51,987 nt of DNA. Source: a phage. The stretch lies in the sequence record PZ715803.1; one strand, written 5' to 3'. The notes beneath the pieces are model-generated. The model was not told the origin of the DNA and did no database searches. It saw nothing but the letters and a program-made list of their open reading frames with translations. Both the position numbers and the translations under genes were made by a program. This document shows positions 7,642-24,080 of this stretch, piece after piece; the first letter of the stretch is position 1, and every line of letters starts with the position of its first letter.

Positions 7642-7658
7642 ACCCGCGCAAGGCGGGT
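7642..7658 (-). terminator. Hairpin ACCCGCGCAAGGCGGGT with flanking A/T runs, between I-like and J-like genes
   Basis: Inverted repeat with T7 on minus strand. Confidence 0.5.
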
Positions 7659-7665
7659 ATTTTTT

Positions 7666-8262
7666 TTATGCTTTATCTTCTGCGTAGCTGCCAGCCGACC
7701 AGATCGCGCCGCCTACTGTCCTATATCCATATGGCAAAGGAACCGGATAGCCTGCCGCCGTGGTATTTACTGCGCCGCCGAAAGCGTAAGAAGGCTTGTT
7801 TTCTGCTGATTGGCTTTGTAGTTTCATTCCGCCCTGCTGTGGCGAGATCATTTGCATGACACCGCCAAGCGCTATAGCACCACCCATCATAAATGCGGAA
7901 GATGCAAAAGCGCCCATAAGCGCCAGGCTTCCACCGCCAGTAATGAACGCAGTAGCCATAATTACAGCACCAAAAACAACATTGAACAGGCCGCCGGACT
8001 TAGAACCAGTTGGAACAGGAACTATTCGAACCTCTCGCGCGCACTTCCATGATTTTTCATCATGCTGACCAATGTTTTTACCGTCAACGAATACAGCGTA
8101 TTTCATGCGCGATCCTACTTCGCTTTGCATGTAGTCTTTGAACCCTTCAACCTGGGAAGATAACGCGCGTATTGCTTCGGGGTATGAGTCAACCGCCATT
8201 TTGTGAAAGACGCCAAATCTACGCCCCAGGGAACCAGATAGCTTAATTACTTTCAATGTCAT
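7666..8262 (-). CDS. Tail assembly protein (lambda I-like)
   Basis: 198 aa, Gly-rich hydrophobic C-terminal half; position after the K-like gene. Confidence 0.75.
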   Translation of the reverse strand: MTLKVIKLSGSLGRRFGVFHKMAVDSYPEAIRALSSQVEGFKDYMQSEVGSRMKYAVFVDGKNIGQHDEKSWKCAREVRIVPVPTGSKSGGLFNVVFGAVIMATAFITGGGSLALMGAFASSAFMMGGAIALGGVMQMISPQQGGMKLQSQSAENKPSYAFGGAVNTTAAGYPVPLPYGYRTVGGAIWSAGSYAEDKA

Positions 8263-8974
8263 ATTTCAGATCCTTATGTCGGCAAATTTTTACAGTGTGC
8301 TCCTGATACCATCCAGAATACAAGTCAATGCGAGATAGCTTTCCAAACGCATGATGTAATAGCTGATTGTTACCCAAATAAATCCCCGCATGATTCCAGA
8401 CTGGCGATGATAGCTGCATAATCACCATATCACCAGGTCTTGGAGGCTCGTTAGTTTCAACAAATCCCTCTTTCAAATAATTATCCTGGTAAAGATTTTC
8501 ACCATATTCTGACTTCCACCACTCGTAAGGCTTTCGGAAGTCATTCAATACTATTCCGTGCTGTTTATGCCACGCCATGATAAGACCCCAGCAATCGAAC
8601 GACCCAAGCGACCACGGGCGACCAATAAGCGGCCTCTCCTGCGGCTCGACAATTCTCATATCACCTTCGGGCCATGACACTATAATCCACGACACACCCA
8701 TTTCATCGCACATACATGAGTCGTGCGCGCTCGGTATCGTGCTAGCACCATCCCCGCAATGGGAATGCACCACCGCGATTAATTCGCCTTTGTCGAGCGA
8801 TTCAGCGTATTCTACGGCGTCCATTTCAAAGTGATTTTCTGGATCGTCATGCACGTTGGTTATGCGGTGATATTTCTGTACCCGTGACTTTTGAGTTATG
8901 ACGCCGCAAGCCTCTTTAGGGTATTCCTCTTTAACGTGCTGCATTATTTCAAGTTTAATTTTTGCACTAATCAT
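8243..8974 (-). CDS. Tail assembly protein (lambda K-like; JAB/MPN plus NlpC/P60-like)
   Basis: HSH...S and Cys/His segments; start at ATG 8974 overlapping the L-like stop. Confidence 0.8.
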   Translation of the reverse strand: MISAKIKLEIMQHVKEEYPKEACGVITQKSRVQKYHRITNVHDDPENHFEMDAVEYAESLDKGELIAVVHSHCGDGASTIPSAHDSCMCDEMGVSWIIVSWPEGDMRIVEPQERPLIGRPWSLGSFDCWGLIMAWHKQHGIVLNDFRKPYEWWKSEYGENLYQDNYLKEGFVETNEPPRPGDMVIMQLSSPVWNHAGIYLGNNQLLHHAFGKLSRIDLYSGWYQEHTVKICRHKDLKYDIESN

Positions 8975-9735
8975 TATTGATTCCTCCGTAGCAGTGAAGC
9001 AACCGCGCAACCGCCGAAATCCAATTCGTTTTGCTGACCGAACCTCAATTTGCAAGCCGTTACAGTTCCGGCGCAATAGTCTTGTGATGGATCTGTTACT
9101 GGCTTATTGTCTTTATCGAACATTGCCGATCCGTTATAAGAGCAACCCTTTCCGCTCCTGTACCACCCCCTTTGCGCCCAATAGCAAACGCTTTGAGTGA
9201 TGCGCGGCGGGATCATTAATCCATCCATATCGTAAGGCGATGTCAGATCAAATTTCGCCACCTCTCTATTATACTGGCTTGGTCGCTCAATGTAATAAAC
9301 CAATTTTCTGTAAGCGCCATCTTTGATTGCTCCGCCTTCTCCGATAAATTCCTTTGCCGTAATCCAGAAAGTCACCTTTGCTTGCATCATGCCATTGTAA
9401 TTTCTGATCATGGCGCTAACCCTGCTGTCAAGGTTTGACACTATAAGCTGAGGCTTATCTGCCCTGCCGTTACTTGTGAAGTTAATCCCGCTCACACCGA
9501 AAGGCCGCGCTCCGTAAACCTCACCCTGGAAAATAATATCTTTCGGCGGCAAGATTCCGGTTTGCTGCGCTTGCATTAATTCTTCGGCAGTATAAGAGAT
9601 GTTCTCATTGTGAAATCGGTAAATATTTGCCCCGAACTTCGTCCCGTCAATCTCTACAAGCGTTATAATTTCACCTGGGTACAAACTTTGTAGGCAATTC
9701 TCAAATTCAACTCTACCTGATTCTTTATTAGCCAT
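8974..9735 (-). CDS. Minor tail protein (lambda L-like)
   Basis: 253 aa; conserved position between M-like and K-like genes. Confidence 0.8.
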   Translation of the reverse strand: MANKESGRVEFENCLQSLYPGEIITLVEIDGTKFGANIYRFHNENISYTAEELMQAQQTGILPPKDIIFQGEVYGARPFGVSGINFTSNGRADKPQLIVSNLDSRVSAMIRNYNGMMQAKVTFWITAKEFIGEGGAIKDGAYRKLVYYIERPSQYNREVAKFDLTSPYDMDGLMIPPRITQSVCYWAQRGWYRSGKGCSYNGSAMFDKDNKPVTDPSQDYCAGTVTACKLRFGQQNELDFGGCAVASLLRRNQ

Positions 9736-9774
9736 TTTCTACCTCCTTTTTGCTCATTGTAACATCAATAAAAA

Positions 9775-9792
9775 AGCCGCACAAAGGCGGCT
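9775..9792 (-). terminator. Hairpin AGCCGCACAAAGGCGGCT plus T-run between M-like and L-like genes
   Basis: Inverted repeat followed by TTTTTTATT on minus strand, directly upstream of the L RBS. Confidence 0.5.
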
Positions 9793-9797
9793 TTAAA

Positions 9798-10148
9798 TTA
9801 CTGCATTGATGTAAATTGTTCCGTAAAAGTGGCTTTTACTTCCTGAACGGTTGGCGACAATGGAGTAAGGCCGACGCTACCGCTTTTCACCCTAAACAAT
9901 CCAGGGCTTCCATCTGGCATGATCCACAAGAAAGGTTTTAGCCTGTGCTCATTCAGGAACTTGACAACATCTCTGTAATCAAGCCCAGCGTAAACAATGC
10001 TGAACTCTCGCCGGATTGTGTTAAAACCTCCAGATGCTACCTGTGTGTATCCGTTACCGAATGCAATCTCTCGATCGTTATTCGATGACGTCATGGCCCC
10101 GCCGCCATTCTGAACCTGCGTACACCACTTAAACTGATCCAGCTTCAT
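9798..10148 (-). CDS. Minor tail protein (lambda M-like)
   Basis: 116 aa after the tape measure gene; ATG at 10148 (ORF-track start is TTG). Confidence 0.75.
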   Translation of the reverse strand: MKLDQFKWCTQVQNGGGAMTSSNNDREIAFGNGYTQVASGGFNTIRREFSIVYAGLDYRDVVKFLNEHRLKPFLWIMPDGSPGLFRVKSGSVGLTPLSPTVQEVKATFTEQFTSMQ

Positions 10149-10150
10149 TA

Positions 10151-12832
10151 TCAACCTCGCTTGCTCATAACAAATTCGTAAACCTCGCCGCCCTGCATAC
10201 AGGAACGCTTAATCATATCAGTAAAGATCATCTTAACACCAGTTTCGATGCCCTTCGGATCGTTGCCGTTAGTGATGCTAACATCAATCCCGCCGATGTT
10301 AAATTGAGGTGCTCCACCAGTTACAGCGCCACCGCCAGTATAGCCGGAACTACCAACAACGCCGCCGTTAGCATAGCCTCGCATCATGCGGTACAAGTTG
10401 CCTACCCCGATACGCTGCGTCGCCTCCTTCGTCATGACAAATTCACCTTTATGGACAATTCCGGCTGGCTCATACTTCCCGCCGTCGCCAGTGTATCCAC
10501 CGCCAGCAAATCCGCCAATGTTCTTAAGCAAGCTCCCCATCGTCCAGGTTTGACCACCCATCAGGCCAGATAACGCATTAAAGACAACCATTTTCGTGAT
10601 CATCTGAATAATCATTTTGATGATAGCCGTCGAGAAGTCTTTAAAGTTTGCCTTGCCAGTAGCGATAAAATTCGCTAATTGGTTTGTAAGGCCGTTTAAC
10701 GCCTCGCTTGCTATCTGCTGAACATTACCATAGGCATTGTTTGCATCTTCCGCGAATAGCTCCCATGCGTTCTTTGCTCCGGCTAACCAGTTGCTTTGCG
10801 CCTCGTCTTGTGTCTGGTAATACAGCTTAAGTTTCTCCTCCATTTGCTGAAAAACTTCATCGCTAACGCTTCCTCCTTGCGCCTCGTAGTCGGTACGCAG
10901 CTTGCGTAACTCTAGCTCACGCTCGATCTGCTTTTCAGTGTAGCCAAGTTGCTTAAGGCCAAGCACATCAATAGCCGCCTGCGTTTCACGGATAAACTTA
11001 ATGCTATCTTGCTCCAGCTTGTTTTTGCGCTCCTGCAAAACAATCTGATCCCCTAGCTCCGCTTTTTGCCTTGCCATTTCAAGAACGGCTTTTTGCTCGT
11101 TTAGTAGCGCCTGTTCCGCTCCGGTCAATTTACGCTTGCTCTGCGCATCCTCCAGGATCTCGATCTGCTTTTCGATGCTCCATAAAGATTTACGCTGGCG
11201 AGAAATAACATCATTAACAGTGCGATGCTCTTTAAGCGTTTCCAGTTGCGCTTTTAAAACGTACAACTCTTTATCAAGCTGCTCAGTTGGGCCGCGAACT
11301 ATTCCGCCTTTAGCCTCTTTCTTTTTCTGCTCCTGCTTCTTGATCTCCTCAAGCTCTTTGCGTCTGAACTCCACGTTTTCAGCCGCACGCTTTTTCAGTT
11401 CTTCATCAGCAGAACGCGCCACGCCCTTCTGATCCTCAATGGCTTTGTTTAAAGCCTCTTGTGCCGCTCGCACTCTGTTTAATGACAGGTTTTCTTTGTC
11501 GATTCGCTCCGCTCGTTCCGCCATGTCCTTATTCGCATCTTTTACGACCTTTCCAATGTCTTCATAAGTGTTAAGTGCAAACTTAAGCATAGGATTAACA
11601 TAGCCAAGCTCTTTACCTAACAGGCCGCCGGACGGGGAAGCGTAATCACGCTTAGCTTTCAAAACTTCATACCACGACTCGCCCAACTCAAGGACTTTGT
11701 TTTTGTGGTTTGCAATTTCGTTATTCAAGCTGACAAAGCTAGACGCGCCCTTGTACTCGTTGACTTTCTTTTTTGCGTCATCATAAGTCATGCCAACGTC
11801 AACCAGTTTTTTAATCGCCTCGCTCGCGCCGTCTTTCGTGGTGATGTAAGCCTTTGCCAGATCTTCTGCGCTTTCTCCTGTCTTGTCGGAAAGCTCCTGG
11901 ATTCCGGTAGCAATCTTTTCGGCAAAATCACCAGTCAAGCCAGTTGTTTCCTGAACGGTTTTTTTAATTGCCTCAAACTCTGTCTGTGTTTTGTAGGCAT
12001 TATATGCAGCAATTGCCAGCGTGCCGGAAAGCAAGCCAAACGCCACGTTTACCGGATTCAGGAAAGATAGCAACGCTTTTAAAGCATTGGATGCGCCACC
12101 AAAAGAATCCTTAATCTGTCCACCCTGCTGGATTGCTACCAACCAAACGGGCATACCAGAAGCAAGTGAAGTCACCACGTCTGTGATCTGCATTGGCAAT
12201 TGCGCCATTGCTTGTTTGTATTGGCCTGTAGAAATACCAAGTTTCTGGATCTGCTTTTCCTGCTCTTTCAGCCTTGCGATGTAAGGCGCCGCCTCCTGGC
12301 TAACTCCAAGCTGTGCAGCTTTCATTTCCAGCAATTCAGACTTGCTTTTTCCGGCTGCTTCTTCCTGCTCACGCAAAGCCTGGACGAATTTTTTAGCTTC
12401 TTCCGCTGCACGCGCCTTGTTCTTTGATTCCTCAAGCGCCGCGCGGCCTTCCTCTGTCATCGCTTTTTTGGTTGCGATCAGCTTGTTTTGCTGCGTCTCA
12501 AGAATTGCCCCAAGCTCAAAAAAAGTCTCATCAGGAACAACGCCCTTTTTCCATAGCGCATCAAGCTGTGTCGCTGCCTTTCGCAGCTTATCCATCTTTG
12601 ACGCGGTGGGATCAATTGACTCCTGGATTTTCTTAAATTCTGCTTTCTGGCGCGCCAGTTCTTCGGCAAACTGTTTAGCTTGCTGTCGCGCCACAACCTC
12701 AGAATCAATAAATTCATTAACGCTTTTTTTTGCGTCGTCGTTTGCCTTCTTGAATTGCTGCAATGATTTAACAGCATTGTTGACCTGCGACACGTCAACG
12801 CCTAGCGTTAGGCCAGCGTATTTCTCAGCCAT
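10151..12832 (-). CDS. Tail tape measure protein
   Basis: 893 aa, extended coiled-coil and Gly-rich C-terminus; downstream of the G/GT chaperone. Confidence 0.9.
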   Translation of the reverse strand: MAEKYAGLTLGVDVSQVNNAVKSLQQFKKANDDAKKSVNEFIDSEVVARQQAKQFAEELARQKAEFKKIQESIDPTASKMDKLRKAATQLDALWKKGVVPDETFFELGAILETQQNKLIATKKAMTEEGRAALEESKNKARAAEEAKKFVQALREQEEAAGKSKSELLEMKAAQLGVSQEAAPYIARLKEQEKQIQKLGISTGQYKQAMAQLPMQITDVVTSLASGMPVWLVAIQQGGQIKDSFGGASNALKALLSFLNPVNVAFGLLSGTLAIAAYNAYKTQTEFEAIKKTVQETTGLTGDFAEKIATGIQELSDKTGESAEDLAKAYITTKDGASEAIKKLVDVGMTYDDAKKKVNEYKGASSFVSLNNEIANHKNKVLELGESWYEVLKAKRDYASPSGGLLGKELGYVNPMLKFALNTYEDIGKVVKDANKDMAERAERIDKENLSLNRVRAAQEALNKAIEDQKGVARSADEELKKRAAENVEFRRKELEEIKKQEQKKKEAKGGIVRGPTEQLDKELYVLKAQLETLKEHRTVNDVISRQRKSLWSIEKQIEILEDAQSKRKLTGAEQALLNEQKAVLEMARQKAELGDQIVLQERKNKLEQDSIKFIRETQAAIDVLGLKQLGYTEKQIERELELRKLRTDYEAQGGSVSDEVFQQMEEKLKLYYQTQDEAQSNWLAGAKNAWELFAEDANNAYGNVQQIASEALNGLTNQLANFIATGKANFKDFSTAIIKMIIQMITKMVVFNALSGLMGGQTWTMGSLLKNIGGFAGGGYTGDGGKYEPAGIVHKGEFVMTKEATQRIGVGNLYRMMRGYANGGVVGSSGYTGGGAVTGGAPQFNIGGIDVSITNGNDPKGIETGVKMIFTDMIKRSCMQGGEVYEFVMSKRG

Positions 12833-12856
12833 TTTAAAACCTCCAGATATTAAAAA

Positions 12857-12872
12857 AGCGCCTTGCGGCGCT
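12857..12872 (-). terminator. Hairpin AGCGCCTTGCGGCGCT plus T-run directly upstream of the tape measure RBS
   Basis: Inverted repeat followed by TTTTTTAAT on minus strand. Confidence 0.45.
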
Positions 12873-13506
12873 TATGTTTTGTTTGAATGAATCATTTCTA
12901 GCGCCTTTTGTTCCATGATGCGCAAATCATTTAGCGCCATCTCCCGATCCTCAATCTTGTAAATGTCAAAAAGCATAGGCAAAACGTTATAGTCGAACCC
13001 ATACACACTGCCGCTAGTCGATCTCCATTGCGTTTGCATTGCGCAAAACAGATCCCAAGATTGAAACATTGATTCATCAAAAATTACCTCCGGCGGCTCC
13101 TCCCCTTCGTAGTCTGAACGGGATAGGCCGACGGCCTCTAGTTGTGCGTCAGTTGGCGGCTTGAGGTAAAACAGGTAAACCGCCCGCTTTAGTTTTTTAC
13201 CCGCTGCCCCGCAAGTGCTTTCATATAATGACCAGTCAGCGATAATGACGCAGAAGGGTAATAATCCAGCAATTTAGCAACGTTTTCCTCGTTAAATTCA
13301 TCTTCCAGATCCCAACCGGAAGCAAGAAAGGTGATCATTTCTACGTCGCTCATCGGCTTTTCTGCCGTGTATCGTTCGTGAATCTCGCTTGCCTTCTTGT
13401 GGCGCACGGTAAAAACAATAACTTGCTCATCACCATTTGGAAGCACGAAAGAAACAGGTAGCTTAAAATCAGGCAGTGGGCCTAACGTTAGTTTCATCTT
13501 TGCCAT
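12872..13506 (-). CDS. Tail assembly chaperone G-T fusion made by programmed -1 frameshift at about 13192-13198
   Basis: Slippery heptamer A AAA AAC in register immediately before the G stop; -1 frame stays open for 106 codons into ORF 12872..13069. Confidence 0.6.
13189..13506 (-). CDS. Tail assembly chaperone (lambda G-like, zero-frame product)
   Basis: 105 aa between major tail and tape measure genes; ends at slippery site. Confidence 0.75.
   Translation of the reverse strand: MAKMKLTLGPLPDFKLPVSFVLPNGDEQVIVFTVRHKKASEIHERYTAEKPMSDVEMITFLASGWDLEDEFNEENVAKLLDYYPSASLSLTGHYMKALAGQRVKN
13192..13198 (-). other. Slippery heptamer AAAAAAC (X XXY YYZ) for -1 ribosomal frameshift
   Basis: Zero-frame codons GTA AAA AAC TAA read directly from the minus strand. 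Confidence 0.6.
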
Positions 13507-13520
13507 CTCAAGATCTCCTT

Positions 13521-13539
13521 ATAGCACTTTTTGTTAAAA
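13521..13539 (+). promoter_or_regulatory. 19-bp element copy (ATAGCACTTTTTGTTAAAA), antisense to the late operon; abuts the RBS of the G chaperone gene
   Basis: Exact consensus; followed on plus strand by TTGATT repeats and TAGATT. Confidence 0.5.
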
Positions 13540-13583
13540 GTGGAATTGATTTATTTGATAGATTGATTTTACAGGAATGAAAA

Positions 13584-13602
13584 AAGGGGCGCAACGCCCC
13601 TT
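13584..13602 (-). terminator. Intrinsic terminator (AAGGGGCGCAACGCCCCTT plus T6) after the major tail gene
   Basis: Strong hairpin and T-run on minus strand. Confidence 0.6.
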
Positions 13603-13605
13603 GTT

Positions 13606-14268
13606 TTACTTAACGTCAGAAGGTAAGAACGTGAATCGACCTTTCAGAGATACGGAAAGGGAAACAGTTTCCATTTCGTTCATAGTGGTTTGCGGAATGT
13701 CATTAAAAGACAATACGCCAGCCCAGCAACGCATCTCTTTAGCTTTCGGCACGTACATACGCAAAGCGGTTACGTCGCCGGATTCCTCAGCCTCGCGCAA
13801 GATCGGATAAATCGGATTATCATATTCATGTGCGAAAGTATAGGTAAGAGAAACGGCGCTCTTGTAGGTCGGCAACTGCTGTTCCTGGTCATCAGCCAAA
13901 CACTGATAAGTGTAATACTGTTGCTCGCCGCCGTCCTGCGCAAGATCCTGTACGCAAGGAATCTCTACCCATGATTTTACTTCTCGGAAGGTTGCTGTAT
14001 TAGAACCAGCCGGAAACACGTTTTGATCGGTTGTGTCTACACCTTCAAGAGTTACGCTTGCGTTATCAGATACTTCTTTTACCCGCAACACACGACTAAC
14101 CAGTTTACCCCAGGAAGACGTTTCAATCAGAACATAAGCACCTTTTTTGATCTGCTGTGAATTACTAACAGTAAAAACCGGATCTTTAGCGTTTGAAATA
14201 TCAGTAGCGCTAATTGGCTCACCCATATTAACGCCGATGAAAATTTGAGAACCATTAGGCAAGTGCAT
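13606..14268 (-). CDS. Major tail (tube) protein
   Basis: 220 aa directly upstream of chaperone G; strong AGGAGG RBS. Confidence 0.7.
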   Translation of the reverse strand: MHLPNGSQIFIGVNMGEPISATDISNAKDPVFTVSNSQQIKKGAYVLIETSSWGKLVSRVLRVKEVSDNASVTLEGVDTTDQNVFPAGSNTATFREVKSWVEIPCVQDLAQDGGEQQYYTYQCLADDQEQQLPTYKSAVSLTYTFAHEYDNPIYPILREAEESGDVTALRMYVPKAKEMRCWAGVLSFNDIPQTTMNEMETVSLSVSLKGRFTFLPSDVK

Positions 14269-14270
14269 GA

Positions 14271-14672: not shown

Positions 14673-15105
14673 TTTTTGCCCTCGAATCCTTTATTGCCTT
14701 AGCCATATAAGATCGCAGCTTTACCGCCACGATTCCAAGTACGCCGGACGGCGCTTGTTTTGAATGACCGTATTCAAGCGCGTTGGCGTAAATAAGCATG
14801 TTTGAAAAATAGATTGACCGCACCGCGCCACCGCCACGCATGATTGCATATATTGCTCGCTTGCCTTCTGCAATGGTTTTACCACCATCGCGATCGTATT
14901 GGTTGAGCGCATATAGCGGCGGCTTGTTTGCTGTTATCTGCCAGTTAGCTTTATATCGGCCCGTGTCAACTGGCGAGCGATTTACAAGATCCTCGTGGAC
15001 GTTTGTCGCGAACATTTCAACGCAATCAACAAGGCCGCTGCTTACTGAATCAATCCACCTGCTTATATCACCGTGAAATTCCCTGATCTTATAGTTATCA
15101 GCCAT
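14662..15105 (-). CDS. Neck / tail-completion protein (HK97 gp10-like)
   Basis: GRYKANWQ motif; ATG 15105 with AAGGAGG RBS. Confidence 0.5.
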   Translation of the reverse strand: MADNYKIREFHGDISRWIDSVSSGLVDCVEMFATNVHEDLVNRSPVDTGRYKANWQITANKPPLYALNQYDRDGGKTIAEGKRAIYAIMRGGGAVRSIYFSNMLIYANALEYGHSKQAPSGVLGIVAVKLRSYMAKAIKDSRAKNAL

Positions 15106-15469
15106 GCACAGCAACCCTCCTTAATATCGGACGATAAGCCGCCGTGATGTTAGTCTGCCTGACTGGTCTTGCTTCAACGACAACATAACGTTCGCCATCA
15201 ATTTCAATCTGATAACCATTTTTGATCTCAGTTTCATTGGTGAATATCCCCAACTTGTCGGTTACTCGGATTGTTTCACCGTCAACCTCTCTAGTCCTCG
15301 GAGATCTAACAAGCCCCTTTATCATCACTGAAATCTCCGGCTTGGTAACTTCCTCTCCTCCGATAATCTCAACCCCTCCCTGCTGCGTGATGCACTTAAA
15401 CATACCGTTAGCGTCGCTGAAAAAGTTAATCCCAGCCGTAGCCATTCTTGCAATCTCATTGTAGTTCAT
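15098..15469 (-). CDS. Head-tail joining protein
   Basis: Position and size; GGAG RBS before ATG 15469. Confidence 0.45.
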
Positions 15470-15885: not shown

Positions 15886-15931
15886 TTTGTTTTCTCCAGA
15901 TGCGACAAGGGGCGCATAAGCGCCCCAATTA

Positions 15932-16198: not shown

Positions 16199-16223
16199 TT
16201 TGTGTACTCCATAAATAAAAAAA

Positions 16224-16244
16224 GGGGAACCCTTAAGGCTCCCC
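16224..16244 (-). terminator. Hairpin plus T-run after the major capsid gene
   Basis: GGGGA...TCCCC stem followed by T7ATTTAT on minus strand. Confidence 0.45.
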
Positions 16245-16255
16245 ATGTTATCTAA

Positions 16256-17227
16256 TTACACAGCTTTTTTCAAGCCAGTAATAAGCACCATCGTAAACGG
16301 ACGATAAATCGTAAGGCCAGTACACTTGGAAGTGCAAGGAACCTTGAAATGTAGGTCTTTTGGCTGCGCCGGAAGCATGTTAAACGCTTCTGGAATCTCA
16401 ATGCTCATGTTCATTGGATCTTTTTCGTAAACCAAGCAACCTTTCGTACCTTTGCCGTCAATATCCTCAAGCTCTGCAATAGAGTCGATAGTGATACCGC
16501 CGTTTTGCTTCTGGAAGTATTCCAGATAACTTTCAGTGGTATTTTCCATTCGAACCGTCAGGACTTTGCGCATGGACGGCGGGATCAGGATGTTGGTCGC
16601 GCGGTGCTGACCTTTGGTTACTTCCTCGATCGTTTCGATTGCGGCCTCCAGTTCATCGCTTGCCACTTCCGGGAACTTGGTATTGCCGTCATTGCTCATC
16701 CAGCCTTTAGAAACAATTTTCGTAAGGTTAGGGTGATCGAAAACGGAAACGATCTTATGAGGCTTGGAACCTTTGAACACCAGGAAGTTAATCAACTGAT
16801 CATGCGCATTTTGCGCAGCGTTAGCCTTGCGAGTTGACAGGCTCTTGCCAGTTCGCTGACCTGCTTTAATCTCATCAATGGAGATCAGATAAGCGTTACC
16901 CAGGCGGAACACTTTGCCAAACTCAGAAGTCATCAACGCGTCCACAGTCGGCAGATCATCGGTGTAGTCGGCGATAATTTTCGCGTAGCCAACCTTATCA
17001 AAAGTCTGATATTCGAAAGTCTTGTCAGTATCAGAAAGCTCGTTTGTTACAGGGAATACGCGAAGCGCGGAACCTGCCGGATATTCTTTCTCGTATGCGG
17101 TTGAGCGGATCTTGTGTAGCTCTTGAGCGGTCCAAATACCCATATCAGAAGCATCACCCTTAACGCCCTGAACCTGTAAATGATTTGCTACAATAGTAGC
17201 ATCTAATTCATCGTATTTTTTAGCCAT
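16256..17227 (-). CDS. Major capsid protein
   Basis: 323 aa from MAKKYDEL; position after scaffold and decoration-like genes. Confidence 0.75.
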   Translation of the reverse strand: MAKKYDELDATIVANHLQVQGVKGDASDMGIWTAQELHKIRSTAYEKEYPAGSALRVFPVTNELSDTDKTFEYQTFDKVGYAKIIADYTDDLPTVDALMTSEFGKVFRLGNAYLISIDEIKAGQRTGKSLSTRKANAAQNAHDQLINFLVFKGSKPHKIVSVFDHPNLTKIVSKGWMSNDGNTKFPEVASDELEAAIETIEEVTKGQHRATNILIPPSMRKVLTVRMENTTESYLEYFQKQNGGITIDSIAELEDIDGKGTKGCLVYEKDPMNMSIEIPEAFNMLPAQPKDLHFKVPCTSKCTGLTIYRPFTMVLITGLKKAV

Positions 17228-17244
17228 TTTGTTTCCTCCATAAA

Positions 17245-17266
17245 AGGCCGCTAAATGTAACGGCCT
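17245..17266 (-). other. Hairpin AGGCCG..CGGCCT between the element copy and the capsid RBS
   Basis: Perfect 6-bp stem, followed by TTTTATGGAGG on minus strand. Confidence 0.4.
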
Positions 17267-17271
17267 AGATG

Positions 17272-17290
17272 ATAGCACTTTTTGTTAAAC
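17272..17290 (+). promoter_or_regulatory. 19-bp element copy (ATAGCACTTTTTGTTAAAC), antisense orientation upstream of the major capsid gene
   Basis: 18/19 match to consensus. Confidence 0.5.
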
Positions 17291-18098: not shown

Positions 18099-18123
18099 TT
18101 CATTTCTCCTTACATAATAAAAA

Positions 18124-18143
18124 AGGCGCTCAATTGAGCGCCT
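18124..18143 (-). terminator. Hairpin AGGCGCTCAATTGAGCGCCT plus T7 between the paralogous head genes
   Basis: Perfect palindrome followed by T-run on minus strand. Confidence 0.55.
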
Positions 18144-18149
18144 ATTATT

Positions 18150-18659
18150 TTAACCAGGGAACACCTGAACTTCAAACAAAGTCAACACATCTTCGCCAGT
18201 TCCAAATGTGGTTTTATCTCCCGTGTAAATCCAATTGGTGTTGATAGCACCAGCACTTTTAACCTTGCCAGTGTTTTCATCAATTTTTACAGGCTCACGA
18301 TAAGATGGCTTTTTGCTCTTATCGGAATCATCGCCAATCATCCAAACGCGGCCCTCGGTCATAACGTTGATTCCGCCGCCAGCCTCATAAACCATTCGAC
18401 CATTATCAGCCGTGGTTTGAAAGTGCGATCGGATGCCAACGCCATAAGGAACATCACCACCACCAGAAATAGCGTCGATCAGCTTATTACCCATTGAGTC
18501 AACGCCTTTTAGCTTAACAGCCACGCCAACCAGGATTGGGATGCCGTCTTCCTTGTCAAGAACGCAAGCGCCGTCGATGTTATATGCCGAAGTATCGGAT
18601 ACCTGACCAGGAAGCGCACGCGCCATAGTGTCAAAATAACTTGCTCCAATTTTAGCCAT
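18150..18659 (-). CDS. Head decoration-like structural protein, paralog B
   Basis: 169 aa; shares N-terminal motifs with 17316..18098. Confidence 0.5.
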   Translation of the reverse strand: MAKIGASYFDTMARALPGQVSDTSAYNIDGACVLDKEDGIPILVGVAVKLKGVDSMGNKLIDAISGGGDVPYGVGIRSHFQTTADNGRMVYEAGGGINVMTEGRVWMIGDDSDKSKKPSYREPVKIDENTGKVKSAGAINTNWIYTGDKTTFGTGEDVLTLFEVQVFPG

Positions 18660-18671
18660 TTTAATTACTCC

Positions 18672-19787: not shown

Positions 19788-19797
19788 TTAACACCTC

Positions 19798-20553
19798 TTA
19801 ACTGTTCCAATCTGGTATGGCCCAACAGCGACAACCGAAAGGCTCACCAGGAAAATCATGTTCAGAATCTAGCGCAATGCGCTTACCCTCCCATTGTACA
19901 TGCTGCAATCGCTCTCTGTCATCAAGCATACCATGCCAAAAATAATGAGTTACTTTTGCATCATAAAGACGCTGGCGCATGAGTCTACTATTCCAAGCGC
20001 CTATGATATTTTCAGCCCTTGTCTTACCCCAAGAGCTATACACTGCAAATCTCTTACCAGCCAATTCATTAACCTGACTATCTCTCATTCCGCGAAAGTT
20101 TGCCGATCTAATATTGGTTGACCAGTCAGACACGATGTTTCCAAATAGTTTTTGAAGCGATGCGATCGTCATGTCATGCCATTGACCGTATAGAGTCCTA
20201 TACCAACTCTCATTCGCATTGGCCCCAATAGCCATAAGGATGATAACGGCTGAATTTGACTTGCCTCCCGTTGATTTCGCTACGTTAATAAATTGCTTTG
20301 CGTTGAATTTATAAACAGCAAGGCCGATAGCCGGAAGTGATGCGGCGATGCCAGCTATTAGCTTTAACGCGAAGCTACTAATCTCATCCTCTGCGGCGTT
20401 GATTTCTTCGGTGTCCGCGTCAAATTTCATTTCCTTTGTTTTGCTGCGCATCAGCACAACAAGATCCCTTATCGCCTCCTGAATTGAGCGGCGCAATTGC
20501 CGCTCGCTTGCTTCAGGAAAGCGCCATTGTTTAACGACGCCTTTCACTATCAT
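19798..20553 (-). CDS. Head morphogenesis protein (Mu F / SPP1 gp7-like)
   Basis: 251 aa immediately after portal with overlapping start/stop. Confidence 0.7.
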   Translation of the reverse strand: MIVKGVVKQWRFPEASERQLRRSIQEAIRDLVVLMRSKTKEMKFDADTEEINAAEDEISSFALKLIAGIAASLPAIGLAVYKFNAKQFINVAKSTGGKSNSAVIILMAIGANANESWYRTLYGQWHDMTIASLQKLFGNIVSDWSTNIRSANFRGMRDSQVNELAGKRFAVYSSWGKTRAENIIGAWNSRLMRQRLYDAKVTHYFWHGMLDDRERLQHVQWEGKRIALDSEHDFPGEPFGCRCWAIPDWNS

Positions 20554-21842
20554 TGATTGCTACCCTCGGTTGTTCCTGGCTCCGGCTCTACGTCCTGCTC
20601 AGGTAATTTAATGTTATTGCCGTCCTTTAGTTTAACGTTAGGCGCAATGGCTCGCAATGTGTCGCGCGCCTCCTCTGTATCCATGAATTGACCGTCAATG
20701 GCCTTGCTCAAAGAATCAATATTCTTGTTCAAGATCTCGGCTTGGTCCTTTTCGCTGGGAACGCTTAACGGCGCAAACTGAATACTCCATTCTTGCTCTT
20801 GAATCAGGAACGGGATCAGAAATTCAAGGATTGGTTTGTATTCTTCCTTTCGCTTTCGGTCGATCAGCTTGTAGAAGGTTTCAAGCGCCGTGTTTTGGCT
20901 CGCGCTAACACCGCCAACGTTCTTGTTTTTGAGGATGATTTCATGGATGCCGGAAAGAGATACAATGCGATCCATCTTCTTTTCCAGGAATGAATCGACG
21001 CCGGAAATATCAGAATTTAAAACATCATATTCCTCATCTTCCGCATCAATGCCGATCGCACGGCCCACGCCACCCTCATCATCAACTTGAGCAAGGCGCA
21101 AACGTGCGGCGTTAACACCATCATCATCATCACAAAGATCGGCAAGTCCTTTAGCTTTCCATACTGCCTGTTGCTTACGTCGCAACAATTGAGTTGCTAA
21201 GTTTTCGCAGTAGTTGTAATCACAAATAGCCTCAACCAATCGCTTATTCAGGATTGACTCACCCCACCCATCATTTGATTGACGTCGCTGATTTGGTAGC
21301 CGCTCACCGTCGATAATACAGACTCGCGAATAGTGAACCTGGTATTCTGGCAGGTCAGCACCAGGTGTAATAGTGTAAATCAATGGCTCACCATATCGCA
21401 CCTTGCGCGGATTAGTTTCTCGCTTTTCTACGCGAACCTGAAAGCGATCGTAAACGCGAACATCTTCAAGGATTGCACCAGGCGCTACAGGTGACTTTAA
21501 TGCCCTGCCATCCTGAACGATTGCCACGATTGCAGCGCCACCAAAAAGACGCGACCAGCAAAGCGCATCAATGATTTTATCGTTTAGTCGCTTCTCATCC
21601 CACAAAGATCTAAAACTCTCCTCATCTTCCACGCCATCAATATTAAATCCAGGTGTCACCATTTCTTCTGGAACAACGTCGATGATTCGTTTCGCTAGGC
21701 CGTCGCGAATGTAAAAATCAGCGTGCGTGGTGTATTCGAACCCTTGCATAAAGAAAGGCAACTCCACACGCCCATTGCCCTTGCTACCCTTGAAAATCTC
21801 GTTGTATCCATCGGCCTTAACTAGCCTTGTTTTTTCGCTCAT
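20550..21842 (-). CDS. Portal protein
   Basis: 430 aa downstream of TerL; ATG 21842 with GGAG RBS. Confidence 0.85.
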   Translation of the reverse strand: MSEKTRLVKADGYNEIFKGSKGNGRVELPFFMQGFEYTTHADFYIRDGLAKRIIDVVPEEMVTPGFNIDGVEDEESFRSLWDEKRLNDKIIDALCWSRLFGGAAIVAIVQDGRALKSPVAPGAILEDVRVYDRFQVRVEKRETNPRKVRYGEPLIYTITPGADLPEYQVHYSRVCIIDGERLPNQRRQSNDGWGESILNKRLVEAICDYNYCENLATQLLRRKQQAVWKAKGLADLCDDDDGVNAARLRLAQVDDEGGVGRAIGIDAEDEEYDVLNSDISGVDSFLEKKMDRIVSLSGIHEIILKNKNVGGVSASQNTALETFYKLIDRKRKEEYKPILEFLIPFLIQEQEWSIQFAPLSVPSEKDQAEILNKNIDSLSKAIDGQFMDTEEARDTLRAIAPNVKLKDGNNIKLPEQDVEPEPGTTEGSNQ

Positions 21843-21863
21843 AGTCAAATCTCCATAATAAAA

Positions 21864-21885
21864 AAGGCTGGAAAAATCCAGCCTT
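21864..21885 (-). terminator. Hairpin AAGGCTGGAAAAATCCAGCCTT plus T-run between TerL and portal
   Basis: Perfect stem followed by TTTTTTATTAT on minus strand. Confidence 0.55.
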
Positions 21886-21912
21886 GATTATATAACTTTT
21901 TAGCAATTAGTG

Positions 21913-23481
21913 CTATTTATTGCGTAGACCTGCCAGCTTTTTCATCCTTGCTACCGGATCATCTGCCAAATTCATTTCGACGTTAACAGCATCAACTATA
22001 TTATCGACAATATCATCATGGGGATGAGAATCATCAAAAGTGAATGCTGCAACCTCTGCCAGTATCTCAGGCAGCATGGGATGATTTTCTGGCAGTGCCA
22101 CACGTCCGGCCCTCATTACTGGCGCGGCGTCCATTGCTCGCGTCACCTTGTCATTGCTTCGCTGAACGGGATTTATATCAATCGGGATCTTCTTTTTGGC
22201 CCCCTGAATCAAACCCGTGCCGCTGGCCTTATCCTCAATGTGGATACGTCGCAAGCTGCCACACTCCTTATTGCGCTTCCAGCACTGGTTAACGAAGGCA
22301 ATAAAATTTAATTCAAGATCCGGCGCTTCCCACTTTCCGCGAATGCCATCAATGAAGTAAACGCGATTCTTATACATCCCCCAATAACAAAAAACCGAAT
22401 AGTCGTTAAGCTCTCCGGCCTTCTGCGCGGTATCTCCAGTAATAAATGTGTATTCAAAGCGATCCGGTTTTGGTAGTGCGCACTTTTCGCCGCTGCCGTA
22501 ATACTGGAACCACTCTGTTTTAAACACGTTCCCGCCAAGCGCGATTGGTTGCTGTTGGTATTGGCTGGCGAACGTGTAAGGATCTGCATTGCGCAATGCA
22601 AGCAACTCCTCCGCGCTTTCCTTCGCAGGCCAAAATGAATAATGAGCGACGCCATCTATCATCACTGGCTTACTTGACAGCACATCACGATCAAATTCAG
22701 GCTTCAACCAATCAGGAAGCGTTTCGCGGTATTCTTTCGTAACCAGCGCCGGAATGCTCACGACTTTAAACTCAATACCACCCATCCCGCCATTAAGCAT
22801 GAACCAGGTGGAATCATTAACGTGTAGTCGCTGTTGCACCATAACAATTGGCGTGGTGTCTTTCATTCGACGCGATCGCACTGTGTTTTTTAACCTCATG
22901 TGAATAGCCTCGCGCTTGACCTTAGAAAGCATATCATCCGGCTTGTCTGGATCGTCAAGAACCAGCATACCAGTAAAACCATCATCCATATAGCCGCCAC
23001 GCAAACCTGTTACCTGGCCGCCAATAGAACGTGAGTTGACTTGCAATTTAACCTTGCCGCCTTCGGTGACTATCAGATCTTTAGCGCTCGCCTTTGCCAG
23101 TTTTCCAGGCCATAGCTCTTGCCACTCAGGAGAACCGATAATCTCCTTTATCCGGTTGCTGTTTTGCTGGACAAGGCCATCACTAAACGAAAGGTTAAGG
23201 TTTCTCACTTTCCGGCTTTTCAATGACGCGTAGGGTGACATGTGGATCGAGAAAATCTCAGTCTTGCCGCTACCTGGCGTAATGTTGAAAATCACATTCT
23301 GCGACTCTCCATTGATGATCTTCTCTACCTCACTGCACAATAAGCTAAAATGCCAGTTGCTCTGGAATTTTTGCCCCTGCAATAATTGGAACCAGATTCT
23401 GATCATCTTTTCGAATGAATGCTCACTGATTTCTTTAATGGCTCGCTTTTGCGCCGCCGTCAAATCTTCCCATATGATCAT
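21913..23481 (-). CDS. Terminase large subunit
   Basis: 522 aa; ATPase Walker A (TPGSGKTE) and Walker B-like VLDDPD; start overlaps TerS stop. Confidence 0.9.
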   Translation of the reverse strand: MIIWEDLTAAQKRAIKEISEHSFEKMIRIWFQLLQGQKFQSNWHFSLLCSEVEKIINGESQNVIFNITPGSGKTEIFSIHMSPYASLKSRKVRNLNLSFSDGLVQQNSNRIKEIIGSPEWQELWPGKLAKASAKDLIVTEGGKVKLQVNSRSIGGQVTGLRGGYMDDGFTGMLVLDDPDKPDDMLSKVKREAIHMRLKNTVRSRRMKDTTPIVMVQQRLHVNDSTWFMLNGGMGGIEFKVVSIPALVTKEYRETLPDWLKPEFDRDVLSSKPVMIDGVAHYSFWPAKESAEELLALRNADPYTFASQYQQQPIALGGNVFKTEWFQYYGSGEKCALPKPDRFEYTFITGDTAQKAGELNDYSVFCYWGMYKNRVYFIDGIRGKWEAPDLELNFIAFVNQCWKRNKECGSLRRIHIEDKASGTGLIQGAKKKIPIDINPVQRSNDKVTRAMDAAPVMRAGRVALPENHPMLPEILAEVAAFTFDDSHPHDDIVDNIVDAVNVEMNLADDPVARMKKLAGLRNK

Positions 23482-24008
23482 TAAAGTTGCTCCAGAATAT
23501 CAATCACAGCCTCTTTCACCTCATCGGCAGTTACTGCGTCAATGCTTGCATTAGCTGCCGCGCTCGCTTCAACGCTCACTGTTGCTGGCTTCTCTACTCC
23601 GATCTCTTTACCGATAAATCCAGCGTTAATCATGTTATTTGCCGCAAGCTGGAATTTTTGCTCGTAAATTACTTTATCAACAAACTCCATCACATCGCAG
23701 AATCCAGGCTCTTTACGCCATTTGCTTACGGCAGCCTCAGTCACGCCGAGATACAAGCTGAATCCGTTAACCGTGAAAACGCGAGGCTTGTAAACTCTGC
23801 TCTCGTACACGTCACCCTGAAAGGAAGCAGTTTCAGCCGCCTGGATGTGATTCTCTTCGGCCCAAGTGAAATAGCGGATCGCCATATCAAAAACCTGTTC
23901 CGGCGTGTACTTGTGGCGGTTATTTAGCGTGACAATATCGCCATAAGTTTTATTGTATAACTCTTTGAAATTTAATGCCTTTACAGCAGGCTCAACATTT
24001 TTAGCCAT
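23481..24008 (-). CDS. Terminase small subunit
   Basis: 175 aa directly upstream of TerL; ATG 24008 with AGGAGG RBS. Confidence 0.6.
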   Translation of the reverse strand: MAKNVEPAVKALNFKELYNKTYGDIVTLNNRHKYTPEQVFDMAIRYFTWAEENHIQAAETASFQGDVYESRVYKPRVFTVNGFSLYLGVTEAAVSKWRKEPGFCDVMEFVDKVIYEQKFQLAANNMINAGFIGKEIGVEKPATVSVEASAAANASIDAVTADEVKEAVIDILEQL

Positions 24009-24036
24009 TATTAATCCTCCTTTGGTTAGATGCCTG

Positions 24037-24045
24037 ATTATACCA
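24037..24045 (-). promoter_or_regulatory. Extended -10 promoter element (TGgTATAAT) upstream of terS
   Basis: Consensus TATAAT preceded by TG at -15/-14, about 25 bp upstream of terS start, just downstream of a hairpin. Confidence 0.35.
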
Positions 24046-24061
24046 GACAACGGGCAATAAA

Positions 24062-24080
24062 AAACCCGCCGTGCGGCGGG
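24062..24080 (-). terminator. Hairpin ACCCGCCGCACGGCGGGT plus T6 separating early genes from the packaging operon
   Basis: Inverted repeat with T-run on minus strand. Confidence 0.55.

Follow-up and report, generated by a model that had tools for sequence, protein, structure and literature searches.

Hairpins of the late region and their conservation

The window, i.e., the whole 51,987-nt stretch of DNA analyzed (sequence record PZ715803.1), belongs to a T1-like coliphage of the Drexlerviridae (Tempevirinae, Warwickvirus) and shares 96–98% identity with phages tiwna and tonnikala. A search for tRNA and tmRNA genes in the window returned none. The late genes are transcribed on the minus strand, for which a preliminary description had proposed eight hairpins with T-runs; all eight were recovered in place, at 7642–7658, 9773–9794, 12856–12873, 13584–13602, 16224–16244, 18124–18143, 21864–21885, and 24064–24081. 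Three further modules, situated before the major capsid gene (17245–17266), before gp27 (15909–15926), and after J (3984–4004), had been missed. Every hairpin lies between a stop codon and the next Shine–Dalgarno sequence (SD) and combines a GC-rich stem of 6–9 bp with a loop of 3–6 nt, as expected of an intrinsic terminator. The GC core is followed by 6–7 T at 9 of the 11 sites, the exceptions being 15909–15926, where the U-tract is degenerate, and 3984–4004, where it is weak on the minus strand. Folding of the 45–50 nt contexts gave dG values of −12.5 to −19.2 kcal/mol (z −2.2 to −4.5). The stem length given earlier was thereby borne out, but the stems are not perfect GC, as they include A–U closing pairs and, in 16224–16244, a G–U pair, and the T-runs do not extend to the nine T ascribed to them. 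A ribosome-binding site within about 20 nt, described for each module, was found for portal (9 nt), the tape measure gene (TMP; 11 nt), gp24 (12 nt), and gp26 (13 nt), but not for L (24 nt), terS (41 nt), J (42 nt), or G (63 nt), and modules precede about 10 of the 23 late genes rather than most of them. Read on the plus strand, five of the eight listed hairpins also resemble terminators and are thus bidirectional.

Rho-independent terminators are already annotated at matching junctions in the GenBank records of T1 (NC_005833, AY216660) and Stevie (NC_027350), including those at terL/portal, at gp26/gp27, and after J. The terminators of the window correspond one to one to these annotations and to the sites in 20 clades of relatives, as the T1-type 'transcripton' terminators would. 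Regulatory features are absent from the TLS record (AY308796). The late hairpins are genuine terminator-like structures, found family-wide at the same junctions and already known from the T1 and Stevie annotation.

Palindromes of this kind could also arise by chance, or be selfish REP/MITE-like repeats with no role in expression, and some cores are indeed shared, e.g., ACCCGCC...GGCGGGT in the 24064 and 7642 hairpins; most are unrelated in sequence. A strict scan of the transcribed strand from 4000 to 24400, which required a perfect stem of 6 bp or more with 4 or more GC pairs and 5 or more T in 7, returned 7 hairpins; in 200 Markov-1 simulations, the mean was 0.115, with at most 2 in any one of them. 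A laxer scan returned 32 against 19.7 ± 4.3. The comparison set comprised about 55 related genomes forming 20 clades, with counts made by locus, clade, or distinct sequence. A hairpin with a T-run was present at ten late junctions, whereas the other twelve late junctions showed one in 0–1 loci each. By loci and clades, respectively, the counts were 14/14 and 6/6 before terS, 44/47 and 14/16 before portal, 42/42 and 12/12 before gp24, 20/27 and 6/11 before capsid, 50/50 and 15/15 before gp26, 36/50 (T-rich tail) and 11/15 before gp27, 42/56 and 17/19 before G, 54/56 and 19/19 before TMP, 51/54 and 18/19 before L, and 52/53 and 18/19 before J. The core stems change among clades, with 6–16 different ones per junction, and the 8 nt following the stem hold a median of 6–7 T. 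The simulation and these counts at fixed syntenic junctions effectively refute an origin by chance or as selfish repeats, to which we assign next to no probability.

MAFFT and RNAalifold found no consensus structure among the orthologous hairpins, whose stems diverge too far for sequence alignment. Per-sequence folding and stem-anchored pair counts were used instead, where pairing is partly present by construction; the independent evidence for hairpin conservation is the presence at ten junctions versus absence at twelve. The hairpin was kept despite a decayed T-run at gp26|gp27 in the clade of the window and at MTP|G in the T1 clade, which means that the stem is of some use apart from termination. 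Hairpins follow the capsid and tail-tube genes, separate the chaperones G/GT from the tape measure, and precede J, a distribution that fits a function in delimiting transcripts and adjusting stoichiometry.

Predicted promoters at the hairpins

The detail added here is that 7–8 of the 10 hairpins overlap a conserved, predicted sigma-70-type promoter in one of two geometries. Neither the two geometries nor their family-wide conservation was found stated in the accessible papers. Among the ten junctions, a promoter is lacking only at TMP and gp27; at the 7–8 others, conserved −35/−10-like elements scored far above control anchors and are candidates for the host sigma-70 (RpoD) promoters of the T1 'transcripton' type. 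In the lists below, DR refers to the 19-nt repeat ATAGCACTTTTTGTTAAAA, an imperfect palindrome TAGCA-N5-TGYTA.

Downstream-type modules (terS, G, L, and J) have a TTGCGC-like −35 within the loop of the hairpin, with the T-run as the spacer between it and a TATAAT-like −10. These promoters had mean scores of 7.5–8.6 compared to 4.4 at random anchors, and most of the sequences at G, L, and J showed a TTGCGC-type −35 at a distance of 17 nt.

24064..24081, minus strand: terminator hairpin ACCCGCC GCAC GGCGGGT, T-run 24056–24063, ending the small-gene unit upstream of terS
24037..24045, minus strand: PterS, predicted, extended −10 TGGTATAAT; TATAAT in 13/13 distinct relatives
24008, minus strand: ATG of terS; predicted start ~24030, SD 24016–24022
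13584–13602 (module 13566..13602), minus strand: terminator after the major tail gene, overlapping PG
13566–13594, minus strand: PG, predicted; −35 TTGCGC 13589–13594 in loop and 3′ arm, 17-nt spacer formed by the T-run, −10 TAAAAT 13566–13571
13521–13539: inverted DR in the G leader
9773–9794 (module 9756..9794), minus strand: terminator hairpin after M, overlapping PL
9756–9784, minus strand: PL, predicted; −35 TTGTGC 9779–9784 in the loop, 17-nt spacer, extended −10 TGTTACAAT 9756–9764
7642–7658 (module 7623..7658), minus strand: terminator hairpin after I, overlapping PJ
7623–7651, minus strand: PJ, predicted; −35 TTGCGC 7646–7651, 17-nt spacer, −10 TATAAT 7623–7628
7590–7608: DR-like ACAGCACAAAAGGTTAAAA, including the SD of J

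The −35 of PG is TTGCGC or TTGCGT in 27 of 34 distinct sequences, and its −10 persists in the T1 clade as well, despite the degenerate MTP|G T-run there. A PL-type promoter was present in 14/19 clades. For PJ, 28 of 35 distinct sequences had TATAAT and 23 of 35 had TTGCGC, and a promoter was present in 17/19 clades. The inverted DR before G was considered as an extended −10 promoter (TGCTATAAG) for this gene and rejected, since its hexamer has G as the last base and overlaps with the SD, which would leave the transcript without a leader.

In the upstream type (portal, capsid, gp26, and weakly gp24), the −10 abuts the hairpin and the predicted start falls inside the 5′ arm. Mean scores were 8.2–8.8 compared to 3.2 at random anchors, and 53–67% of these promoters scored at least 8.5, as against 1.1% at random anchors; the six junctions without an upstream-type promoter, which serve as an internal control, scored like the control anchors.

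21898–21916: DR/operator-like ATAGCACTAATTGCTAAAA, occupying −36 to −18 of the predicted Pportal
21887..21892, minus strand: Pportal, predicted, −10 TATAAT, 1 nt from the hairpin; predicted start ~21879–21880, inside the hairpin 5′ arm
21864..21885, minus strand: terminator hairpin terL/portal; T-run 21855–21863, SD 21851–21854, ATG 21842
18147–18175, minus strand: possible gp24 upstream promoter, TTGAAG 18170–18175 and TAAAAT 18147–18152; weakly conserved (4/12 clades)
18124..18143, minus strand: terminator hairpin between the htjA-like decoration-protein gene and the gp24-like Ig-domain decoration gene; T-run 18114–18123
17269..17277, minus strand: PMCP, predicted, extended −10 TGCTATCAT, partly formed by an inverted DR (17272–17290); predicted start ~17262, inside the hairpin 5′ arm
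17245..17266, minus strand: hairpin AGGCCGTTA CATT TAGCGGCCT with TTTAT, directly before the SD (17235–17239) of the major capsid gene; dG −15.8, z −4.0
16245–16273, minus strand: Pgp26, predicted; TTGAAA 16268–16273, 17-nt spacer, TAACAT 16245–16250, abutting the hairpin; predicted start ~16238
16224..16244, minus strand: terminator hairpin after the major capsid gene; T-run 16211–16223; 16 distinct core stems among relatives

The Pportal hexamer matched at at least 5/6 positions in 24/25 distinct sequences, and its promoter score was at least 8 in 10 clades. PMCP reached this score in 6/6 clades having the capsid hairpin, and its T1 homologue, TTGACG-16-TATTAT, is annotated in AY216660 as a promoter directly abutting the terminator before the capsid gene. 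Likewise, TTGnnn-17-TAnnAT was found for Pgp26 in 35/36 distinct sequences, and 10/15 clades scored at least 8. With the start predicted at gp24, a hairpin of 6 bp remains intact. The capsid cistron is flanked by hairpins on both sides.

The remaining modules are the two promoter-less ones and the hairpin after J.

15909..15926, minus strand: hairpin GGGGCGC TTAT GCGCCCC, gp26/gp27; T-run degenerate in the window's clade (TTGTCGCATCT); no promoter
12856..12873, minus strand: terminator hairpin separating the G/GT chaperone genes from the tape measure gene; T-run 12847–12855, SD 12840–12844; no promoter here or in any clade (0 clades)
3984..4004: hairpin between the convergent J gene (minus) and the 3365–3979 ORF (plus); T-run good on the plus strand, weaker on the minus strand

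Proposed transcription units of the late region and alternative readings

The explanation that we consider probable is that the hairpins are intrinsic terminators for the host polymerase, bounding a chain of short late units ('transcriptons') mostly by way of terminator–promoter junctions. The 'transcripton' model of T1 (Roberts, Martin and Kropinski 2004) is quoted in the TLS paper (PMC11447400). With a conserved predicted promoter at most of its hairpins, the window seems to have its late genes arranged as a series of short units, and not as one long operon dependent on a special antitermination factor. At the downstream-type modules, polymerase arriving from upstream would be released, and a fresh transcript would begin about 25 nt later. 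At the upstream-type modules, where the −35/−10 pair ends 0–4 nt before the hairpin, transcripts arriving from upstream would end at the hairpin, whereas those of the unit itself, starting in the 5′ arm, would lack the hairpin and so escape termination. The predicted starts on the minus strand lie near 24030, 21880, 17262, 16238, 13559, 9749, and 7616. Lacking a promoter, the G/GT–TMP hairpin appears to be a read-through site, and TMP–M and gp27-to-tail-tube, the only segments with no promoter, would be reached by read-through; the G/GT–TMP and gp26–gp27 hairpins may thus be partial terminators (attenuators), and attenuation would lower tape measure expression relative to its chaperones. Hairpins at 3′ ends may additionally shield the upstream mRNAs from exonucleases.

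What the junctions show is a set of structures that occur non-randomly and keep their positions while their stems change, along with conserved promoter hexamers at fixed distances. It is from these features that we infer actual termination and initiation, their efficiencies, and the start sites, so that the whole explanation draws on in silico evidence. Some points speak against it: the −35 hexamers match the consensus at only 3–5 of 6 positions, the upstream-type −35, along with some of the spacer, falls within coding sequence and may be conserved in part because of the protein encoded there, and near-consensus sigma-70 promoters before late genes do not alone explain late timing. A search of the literature on Drexlerviridae/T1 transcriptomics, Term-seq, and late-gene regulation found in silico promoter and terminator counts and no mapping of 5′ or 3′ ends; the RNA-seq in PMC13250531 concerns a T5-like phage.

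The hairpins could instead act mainly on RNA, as 3′ stabilizers or processing signals with termination minor, which we regard as rather unlikely. With an RNase E site located in the U/A-rich stretch that separates the stem from the SD, they would divide a long late mRNA into segments of differing half-life, and the U-run would double as a translation enhancer bound by ribosomal protein S1. The survival of hairpins whose T-run has decayed fits such a role, as do the SD placed 5–13 nt after the U-run in the promoter-less and upstream-type modules and the paired hairpins around the capsid cistron. Nevertheless, the T-run is conserved at nearly all junctions and on the transcribed side only, which a stabilizer would not need, and the promoter hexamers would be left unexplained; moreover, RNA-level effects overlap with the terminator–promoter explanation and do not exclude it. 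The preliminary description had named 5′ stabilization and stoichiometry among the possible functions. The conserved positions agree with the latter, while a 5′ stabilizing hairpin is unlikely at the upstream-type modules given a predicted start inside the hairpin; 3′ stabilization of the upstream mRNA is plausible.

The preliminary description had also supposed one polycistronic late operon in need of processive antitermination. Under such a scheme, a phage protein or RNA would make the host polymerase terminator-resistant late in infection, yielding one or a few long late transcripts, and the terminators would keep late genes silent early. The genes beyond the promoter-less G/GT–TMP and gp26–gp27 hairpins do need read-through, the promoter-then-terminator layout of the upstream type superficially resembles lambda pR′–tR′, near-consensus promoters by themselves leave late timing unexplained, and many small early ORFs have no known function. 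Nonetheless, the conserved predicted promoters at 7–8 of 10 hairpins speak against a single operon and would be needless under a single antiterminated transcript, and the promoter that AY216660 places against the T1 capsid terminator argues likewise. In addition, the upstream-type starts are predicted inside the hairpin and not upstream of it, and a promoter-less terminator stands where lower (tape measure) expression is expected anyway. Pfam and PHROGs scans of 60 non-structural ORFs gave no Q, N, or other antiterminator family among the matches listed: the Q family had no Pfam match, and no antiterminator appeared among the PHROGs matches listed (25 of 36 and 46 families). For antitermination of the N/nut or put type, there was no N family match and no Rfam family at gathering score, as judged with Rfam models only. 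A lambda-type arrangement of a single late promoter with a Q-dependent terminator was not found either, there being several predicted promoters and, at the modules where the promoter precedes the hairpin, a predicted start within the 5′ arm. Altogether, we judge antitermination quite improbable.

Across the whole window, no Rfam family reached its gathering threshold, and at E up to 1 the late region gave only weak generic sRNA matches, the best being STnc50 at 13529–13613 on the plus strand (33 bits; gathering score 55). This match was not accepted as meaningful, since PMC5391140 presents STnc40 as a hypothetical attenuator of mutT, and it probably reflects an AU-rich stretch together with the terminator hairpin.

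Regarding regulation, no homologues of Ogr, C, or Mor were detected, and the only candidate regulator was a 158-aa Cro/YdaS-like HTH protein (46958–47434). The 19-nt repeat stands at about −40 of some 16 early/middle promoters, an activator position, while at four late promoters (portal, capsid, G, and J) it covers the core or the leader, i.e., repressor positions. The repeat itself was rejected as the −35 of the early promoters because its TTGTTA and the −10 are 21 nt apart. A single DNA-binding protein of the phage, for which the 158-aa HTH protein is a possible candidate, could switch on the early units and keep the late ones off. It is conceivable, and in our opinion distinctly unlikely, that the junctions form a regulated switch instead of passive boundaries, each late unit being insulated from its neighbour by the upstream-type start inside the hairpin, or that an unrecognized small early protein is a new kind of antiterminator.

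T1-like phages are common contaminants in laboratories and fermentations, as well as candidates for phage therapy. Exact coordinates are now available for the predicted starts and stops of their late units in the window. Should these be confirmed, each module would combine a terminator and a promoter in ~45 bp, making it a compact natural insulator part, and the modules would explain differing capsid, tail-tube, and tape-measure transcript levels without a dedicated antiterminator.

Comparison with known late-gene systems

In lambda, one late promoter, pR′, gives one long transcript by means of tR′ and the Q antiterminator. The window resembles this system in having siphovirus late structural genes, host polymerase, and, at the upstream-type modules, an intrinsic terminator just downstream of a late promoter. 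It differs in having about 7–8 predicted promoters and 10 terminators, with no Q homologue found among the matches listed, and since the predicted start lies inside the hairpin, no short terminated transcript such as lambda 6S RNA is expected. The late regions of P2 and Mu are composed of several operons with their own promoters and terminators, activated by Ogr/Delta or C. The late genes of the window are similarly divided into multiple terminator-bounded units, but their −10 elements are near the sigma-70 consensus, most with a recognizable −35-like TTG.

Partial terminators or attenuators are exemplified by T7 T-phi after capsid gene 10, E. coli rplL–rpoB, and the terminator T1 of rpsU–dnaG–rpoD. 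In these, a hairpin with a U-run after an abundantly needed gene lowers transcription of the next genes, which would fit the G/GT–TMP, after-capsid, and after-tail-tube sites; in contrast to them, most junctions here carry a predicted promoter too, so that transcription would restart as well as being attenuated. Intercistronic mRNA-stabilizing hairpins include the REP elements of malE–malF and those of the puf operon. As GC-rich intercistronic stem-loops, the window hairpins could likewise shield upstream segments from 3′ exonucleases, but the REP and puf elements have neither a conserved U-run nor promoter coupling.

The window shares with T1 and Stevie a set of ten syntenic junctions, running from upstream of terS to beyond J, at which Rho-independent terminators stand, and promoters are predicted within the late region as well. 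The window belongs to another subfamily and genus than T1, and it carries a DR over the portal promoter that is absent from T1. Finally, the gp26|gp27 T-run is degenerate in the window and intact in T1, whereas the MTP|G T-run is intact in the window and degenerate in T1.

Hairpins at the late-gene junctions

For a 12.5-kb query from the window, 103 phage records matched across 80% or more of the query, the closest being Escherichia phages tiwna (97.9%), tonnikala, atuna, and SECphi27. Because of these matches and the taxonomy of the tiwna record (Drexlerviridae, Tempevirinae, Warwickvirus), the window was assigned to a virulent siphophage of the T1 type, ~52 kb in size. The ORF list was combined with the annotation of tiwna to place the late genes, which extend on the minus strand from terS (24008) to J (4008). 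Upstream of the tape measure (TMP) gene, the G and T ORFs (12872-13506, minus strand) show the layout usual for a programmed-frameshift tail-chaperone pair, and the records of Stevie and T1 give G/T as a joined CDS.

The preliminary description had placed eight hairpins followed by T-runs between late genes, and a consensus scan recovered all eight at the same positions on the minus strand, with folding energies of -12.5 to -19.2 kcal/mol and z scores of -2.2 to -4.5 (45-50 nt contexts, against dinucleotide shuffles). A strict scan, which required a perfect stem (6 bp or more, including 4 or more GC pairs) and 5 or more T in 7, found 7 sites between 4000 and 24400 on the transcribed strand, compared with a mean of 0.115 and a maximum of 2 in simulated sequences. 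Some details required correction: one stem, described like the others as a perfect GC stem, contains a G-U pair, and the T-runs comprise 6-7 T instead of six to nine. The ribosome-binding site follows within about 20 nt, as had been proposed, at four of the eight sites (SD at 9-13 nt), but lies 24 nt away at L and 41-63 nt away at terS, J, and G. Three further modules had been missed.

Additional hairpin modules and T-runs of the late region
17245-17266, module before the capsid gene
15909-15926, module before gp27, with a poor T-run
3984-4004, module after J
24056-63, 21855-63, 18114-23, 17240-44, 16211-23, 13576-83, 12847-55, 9763-72, and 7633-41, minus strand, T-runs

With an A-run upstream and a T-run downstream, the hairpins at 7642-7658, 12856-12873, 13584-13602, 18124-18143, and 24064-24081 have a terminator score on both strands, and dual-strand terminator-like hairpins were also observed at 508-523 and 40435-40457. 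Such two-strand hairpins would block antisense transcription too. A sub-threshold Rfam match to STnc50/STnc40 at 13529-13613 on the plus strand (33 bits, where the gathering score is 55), which runs antisense to the region of the predicted G promoter (PG) up to the bidirectional hairpin, probably reflects the generic likeness of AU-rich stretches joined to a terminator.

Conservation was assessed in 53 IMG/VR loci obtained by a major tail protein search, with ±10 kb of flank and spanning the whole late region, to which T1, tiwna, pSf-1, Stevie, and Rtp were added. Twenty-three late proteins were placed by tblastn, each gene junction was searched for a hairpin abutting a T-run, and the sequences were clustered into 20 clades at 88% identity of the tail-tube gene.

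Occurrence of hairpin plus T-run at late junctions (loci; clades)
Before terS: 14/14; 6/6
terL to portal: 44/47; 14/16
htjA to gp24 (decoration-protein genes): 42/42; 12/12
gp24 to capsid: 20/27; 6/11
Capsid to gp26: 50/50; 15/15
gp26 to gp27: 36/50; 11/15
Tail tube to G: 42/56; 17/19
G/GT to TMP: 54/56; 19/19
Before L: 51/54; 18/19
Before J: 52/53; 18/19

The remaining twelve late junctions showed the structure in 0-1 loci each. Every hairpin junction presented 6-16 distinct core stems, in which many pairs had changed on both sides; the related loci had a median of 6-7 T among the 8 nt 3′ of the stem. These pairing counts are partly circular because the hairpins were located by folding, and the stems of orthologous hairpins could not be aligned with MAFFT and RNAalifold. 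The strong evidence offered by the sequence comparison is positional, namely ten junctions with a hairpin versus twelve without. The hairpins themselves are real, show strong conservation, and almost certainly have a function. Extra ORFs were found inserted at late junctions of some relatives, both with and without hairpins, including Rtp insertions at 6388-6864 and 21464-21979; HNH endonuclease genes are among the Rtp inserts, and late-junction gaps of 470-760 nt occur in several IMG/VR loci.

Predicted promoters coupled to the hairpins

At terS, G, L, and J, the four junctions with a long hairpin-to-ATG distance, a predicted sigma-70-type promoter overlaps and follows the hairpin. Its -10-like hexamer ends about 20 nt past the GC core at G, L, and J and 28 nt past it at terS, and reads TATAAT in 13/13 distinct sequences at terS and in 28 of the 35 at J (TACAAT in 5 more), with the variants TAATAT, TAAAAT, TACAAT, and TAGAAT at G and TAGAAT, TACAAT, and TATAAT at L. 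Exactly 17 nt upstream of the -10 at G, L, and J, TTGCGC, TTGTGC, or TTGCGG is situated within the loop and 3′ arm of the hairpin, and the T-run would therefore serve as the promoter spacer; at terS, such a loop hexamer occurs in some relatives and is absent from the window's junction. Mean promoter scores were 7.5-8.6 of 12; random anchors gave 4.4, and the other junctions 4.5-6.8. In the T1 clade, the T-run 3′ of the tail-tube gene has decayed, yet TTGCGC-17-TAAAAT is retained.

A second arrangement was identified between terL and portal, gp24 and capsid, and capsid and gp26, where 0-4 nt separate the end of the -10-like hexamer from the GC core that follows, and TTGnnn lies 17 nt upstream of the hexamer. 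Here mean scores reached 8.2-8.8 versus 3.2 at random anchors, and 53-67% of the sequences attained at least 8.5 versus 1.1% of controls, while the six junctions without an upstream promoter scored 2.7-4.9, similar to controls. The signal was present in 10, 6, and 10 clades, respectively, compared with 0-1 at no-signal junctions. Between htjA and gp24, the upstream promoter is weaker (4/12 clades), the window carrying TTGAAG-17-TAAAAT. At the G/GT to TMP and gp26 to gp27 junctions, no clade had a promoter upstream or downstream. Since the usual distance from the -10 to the start is 6-9 nt, the predicted starts fall inside the 5′ arm (~21880, 17262, and 16238), and transcripts beginning there would be devoid of the hairpin.

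Predicted promoter elements and starts
7646-7651 (TTGCGC) and 7623-7628 (TATAAT), minus strand, predicted J promoter (PJ), 17-nt spacer
24030, minus strand, predicted terS start
13559, minus strand, predicted G start
9749, minus strand, predicted L start
7616, minus strand, predicted J start
18140, minus strand, doubtful start between htjA and gp24

The 19-nt repeat and a candidate regulator

The 19-nt direct repeat (DR) reported for phage TLS (PMC11447400) occurs in the window in about 19 copies (ATAGCACTTTTTGTTAAAA), compared with 2.5 expected, and an imperfect palindrome, TAGCA-N5-TGYTA, forms its core.

Copies of the direct repeat
2742, 26111, 27431, 28933, 30247, 31464, 31927, 33281, 34585, 35091, 37290, 37964, 40126, 43369, 44439, 46928, and 48489, early/middle copies
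21898-21916, minus strand, late copy overlapping the predicted portal promoter (-36 to -18)
17272-17290, plus strand, inverted late copy covering both spacer and -10 in the predicted capsid promoter
13521-13539, plus strand, late copy, inverted, in the G leader
7590-7608, minus strand, late variant in the J leader, including the SD of J

The early/middle copies precede genes, and 16/17 have a -10-like hexamer 18-19 nt downstream, followed by a conserved leader, CATCGAAACGA, and then the SD. Because none of the 17 has a -35 at the usual spacing, the repeat would occupy about -49 to -31, as an activator or UP site does. In ten copies (26111, 27431, 28933, 30247, 31927, 37290, 37964, 40126, 43369, and 44439), the spacer between repeat and -10 is filled by a stable hairpin rich in GC (dG between -10.9 and -16.4, z between -2.1 and -6.2), different in sequence each time and without a T-run. 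These hairpins might act as RNA in read-through transcripts or else at the level of the DNA.

The late copies either cover predicted late promoters or lie a short way downstream of them, and many clades, not all, have kept them. An activator-like position at early promoters and an operator-like one at late promoters invite the speculation that one regulator exerts two effects. A candidate DR-binding protein is the 158-aa product of 46958-47434 (plus strand), the positional homologue of T1 gp23, which matches phrog_2856 (transcriptional regulator), carries a weak Cro/YdaS-type HTH at residues 55-90, and stands alone as a recognisable transcription factor, being also the only protein in the PHROGs category of transcription regulation, among the matches listed.

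Proposed late units and comparison with annotated T1-like phages

The best-supported reading, judged from sequence, is that the late region may form a chain of separate transcription units, as follows.

Proposed late transcription units
PterS, terS, terL, terminator
Pportal, portal, morphogenesis, protease, and decoration genes, terminator
Possible promoter, Ig-decoration gene, terminator
Pcapsid, capsid, terminator
Pgp26, gp26, weak terminator, connector genes to tail tube, terminator
PG, G/GT, partial terminator, TMP, M, terminator
PL, L, K, I, terminator
PJ, J, terminator

The capsid gene would thus have its own promoter and its own terminator. In lambda, the tape measure is needed in fewer copies than its chaperones, and the sole clear promoter-less terminator, before TMP, would fit this low-need position. 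The hairpins probably also stabilise 3′ ends. The promoters look recognisable to unmodified host polymerase, and the chain of units would therefore not account for temporal control.

Processive antitermination, one of the two options that had been put forward for a late operon interrupted so often, is not favoured, as promoters coupled to the hairpins would make it dispensable. No member of the Q, N, or other antiterminator families was matched by Pfam among 60 non-structural ORFs, which gave only the weak HTH match of the 158-aa protein and one weak sigma-70 region-4 match in a single ORF, and Rfam returned nothing at the gathering threshold and weak generic sRNA matches only at E up to 1. 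The preliminary remark that no antiterminator is evident agrees with the Pfam, PHROGs, and Rfam scans, though they do not prove that none exists.

In the T1 RefSeq record, the equivalent late junctions already carry annotated rho-independent transcriptional termination sites. These precede terS and the tape measure gene, follow the capsid gene, gp46, and the major tail gene, separate terL from portal, gp49 from gp48, and gp37 from gp36, and flank gp33 (J) on both sides. The identical set is annotated in Stevie, from a third genus. For TLS, 21 intergenic terminators were reported in a paper citing Roberts et al. 2004 (PMC11447400), and other T1-like genome papers give bare counts of 8-21; in the Drexlerviridae literature, we found no experimental transcript mapping for any family member. 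The T1 genome as re-annotated by CPT (AY216660) has a promoter, placed independently of the present analysis, whose position is 15062-15089 (TTGACG-16-TATTAT); it directly adjoins a terminator at 15095-15121 and the capsid RBS, a paradoxical layout that a start within the hairpin would be needed to resolve. The hairpins are terminators already annotated in T1-like phages, to which the present analysis adds a family-wide conservation test, two geometries of terminator-promoter overlap, and explicit testable coordinates.
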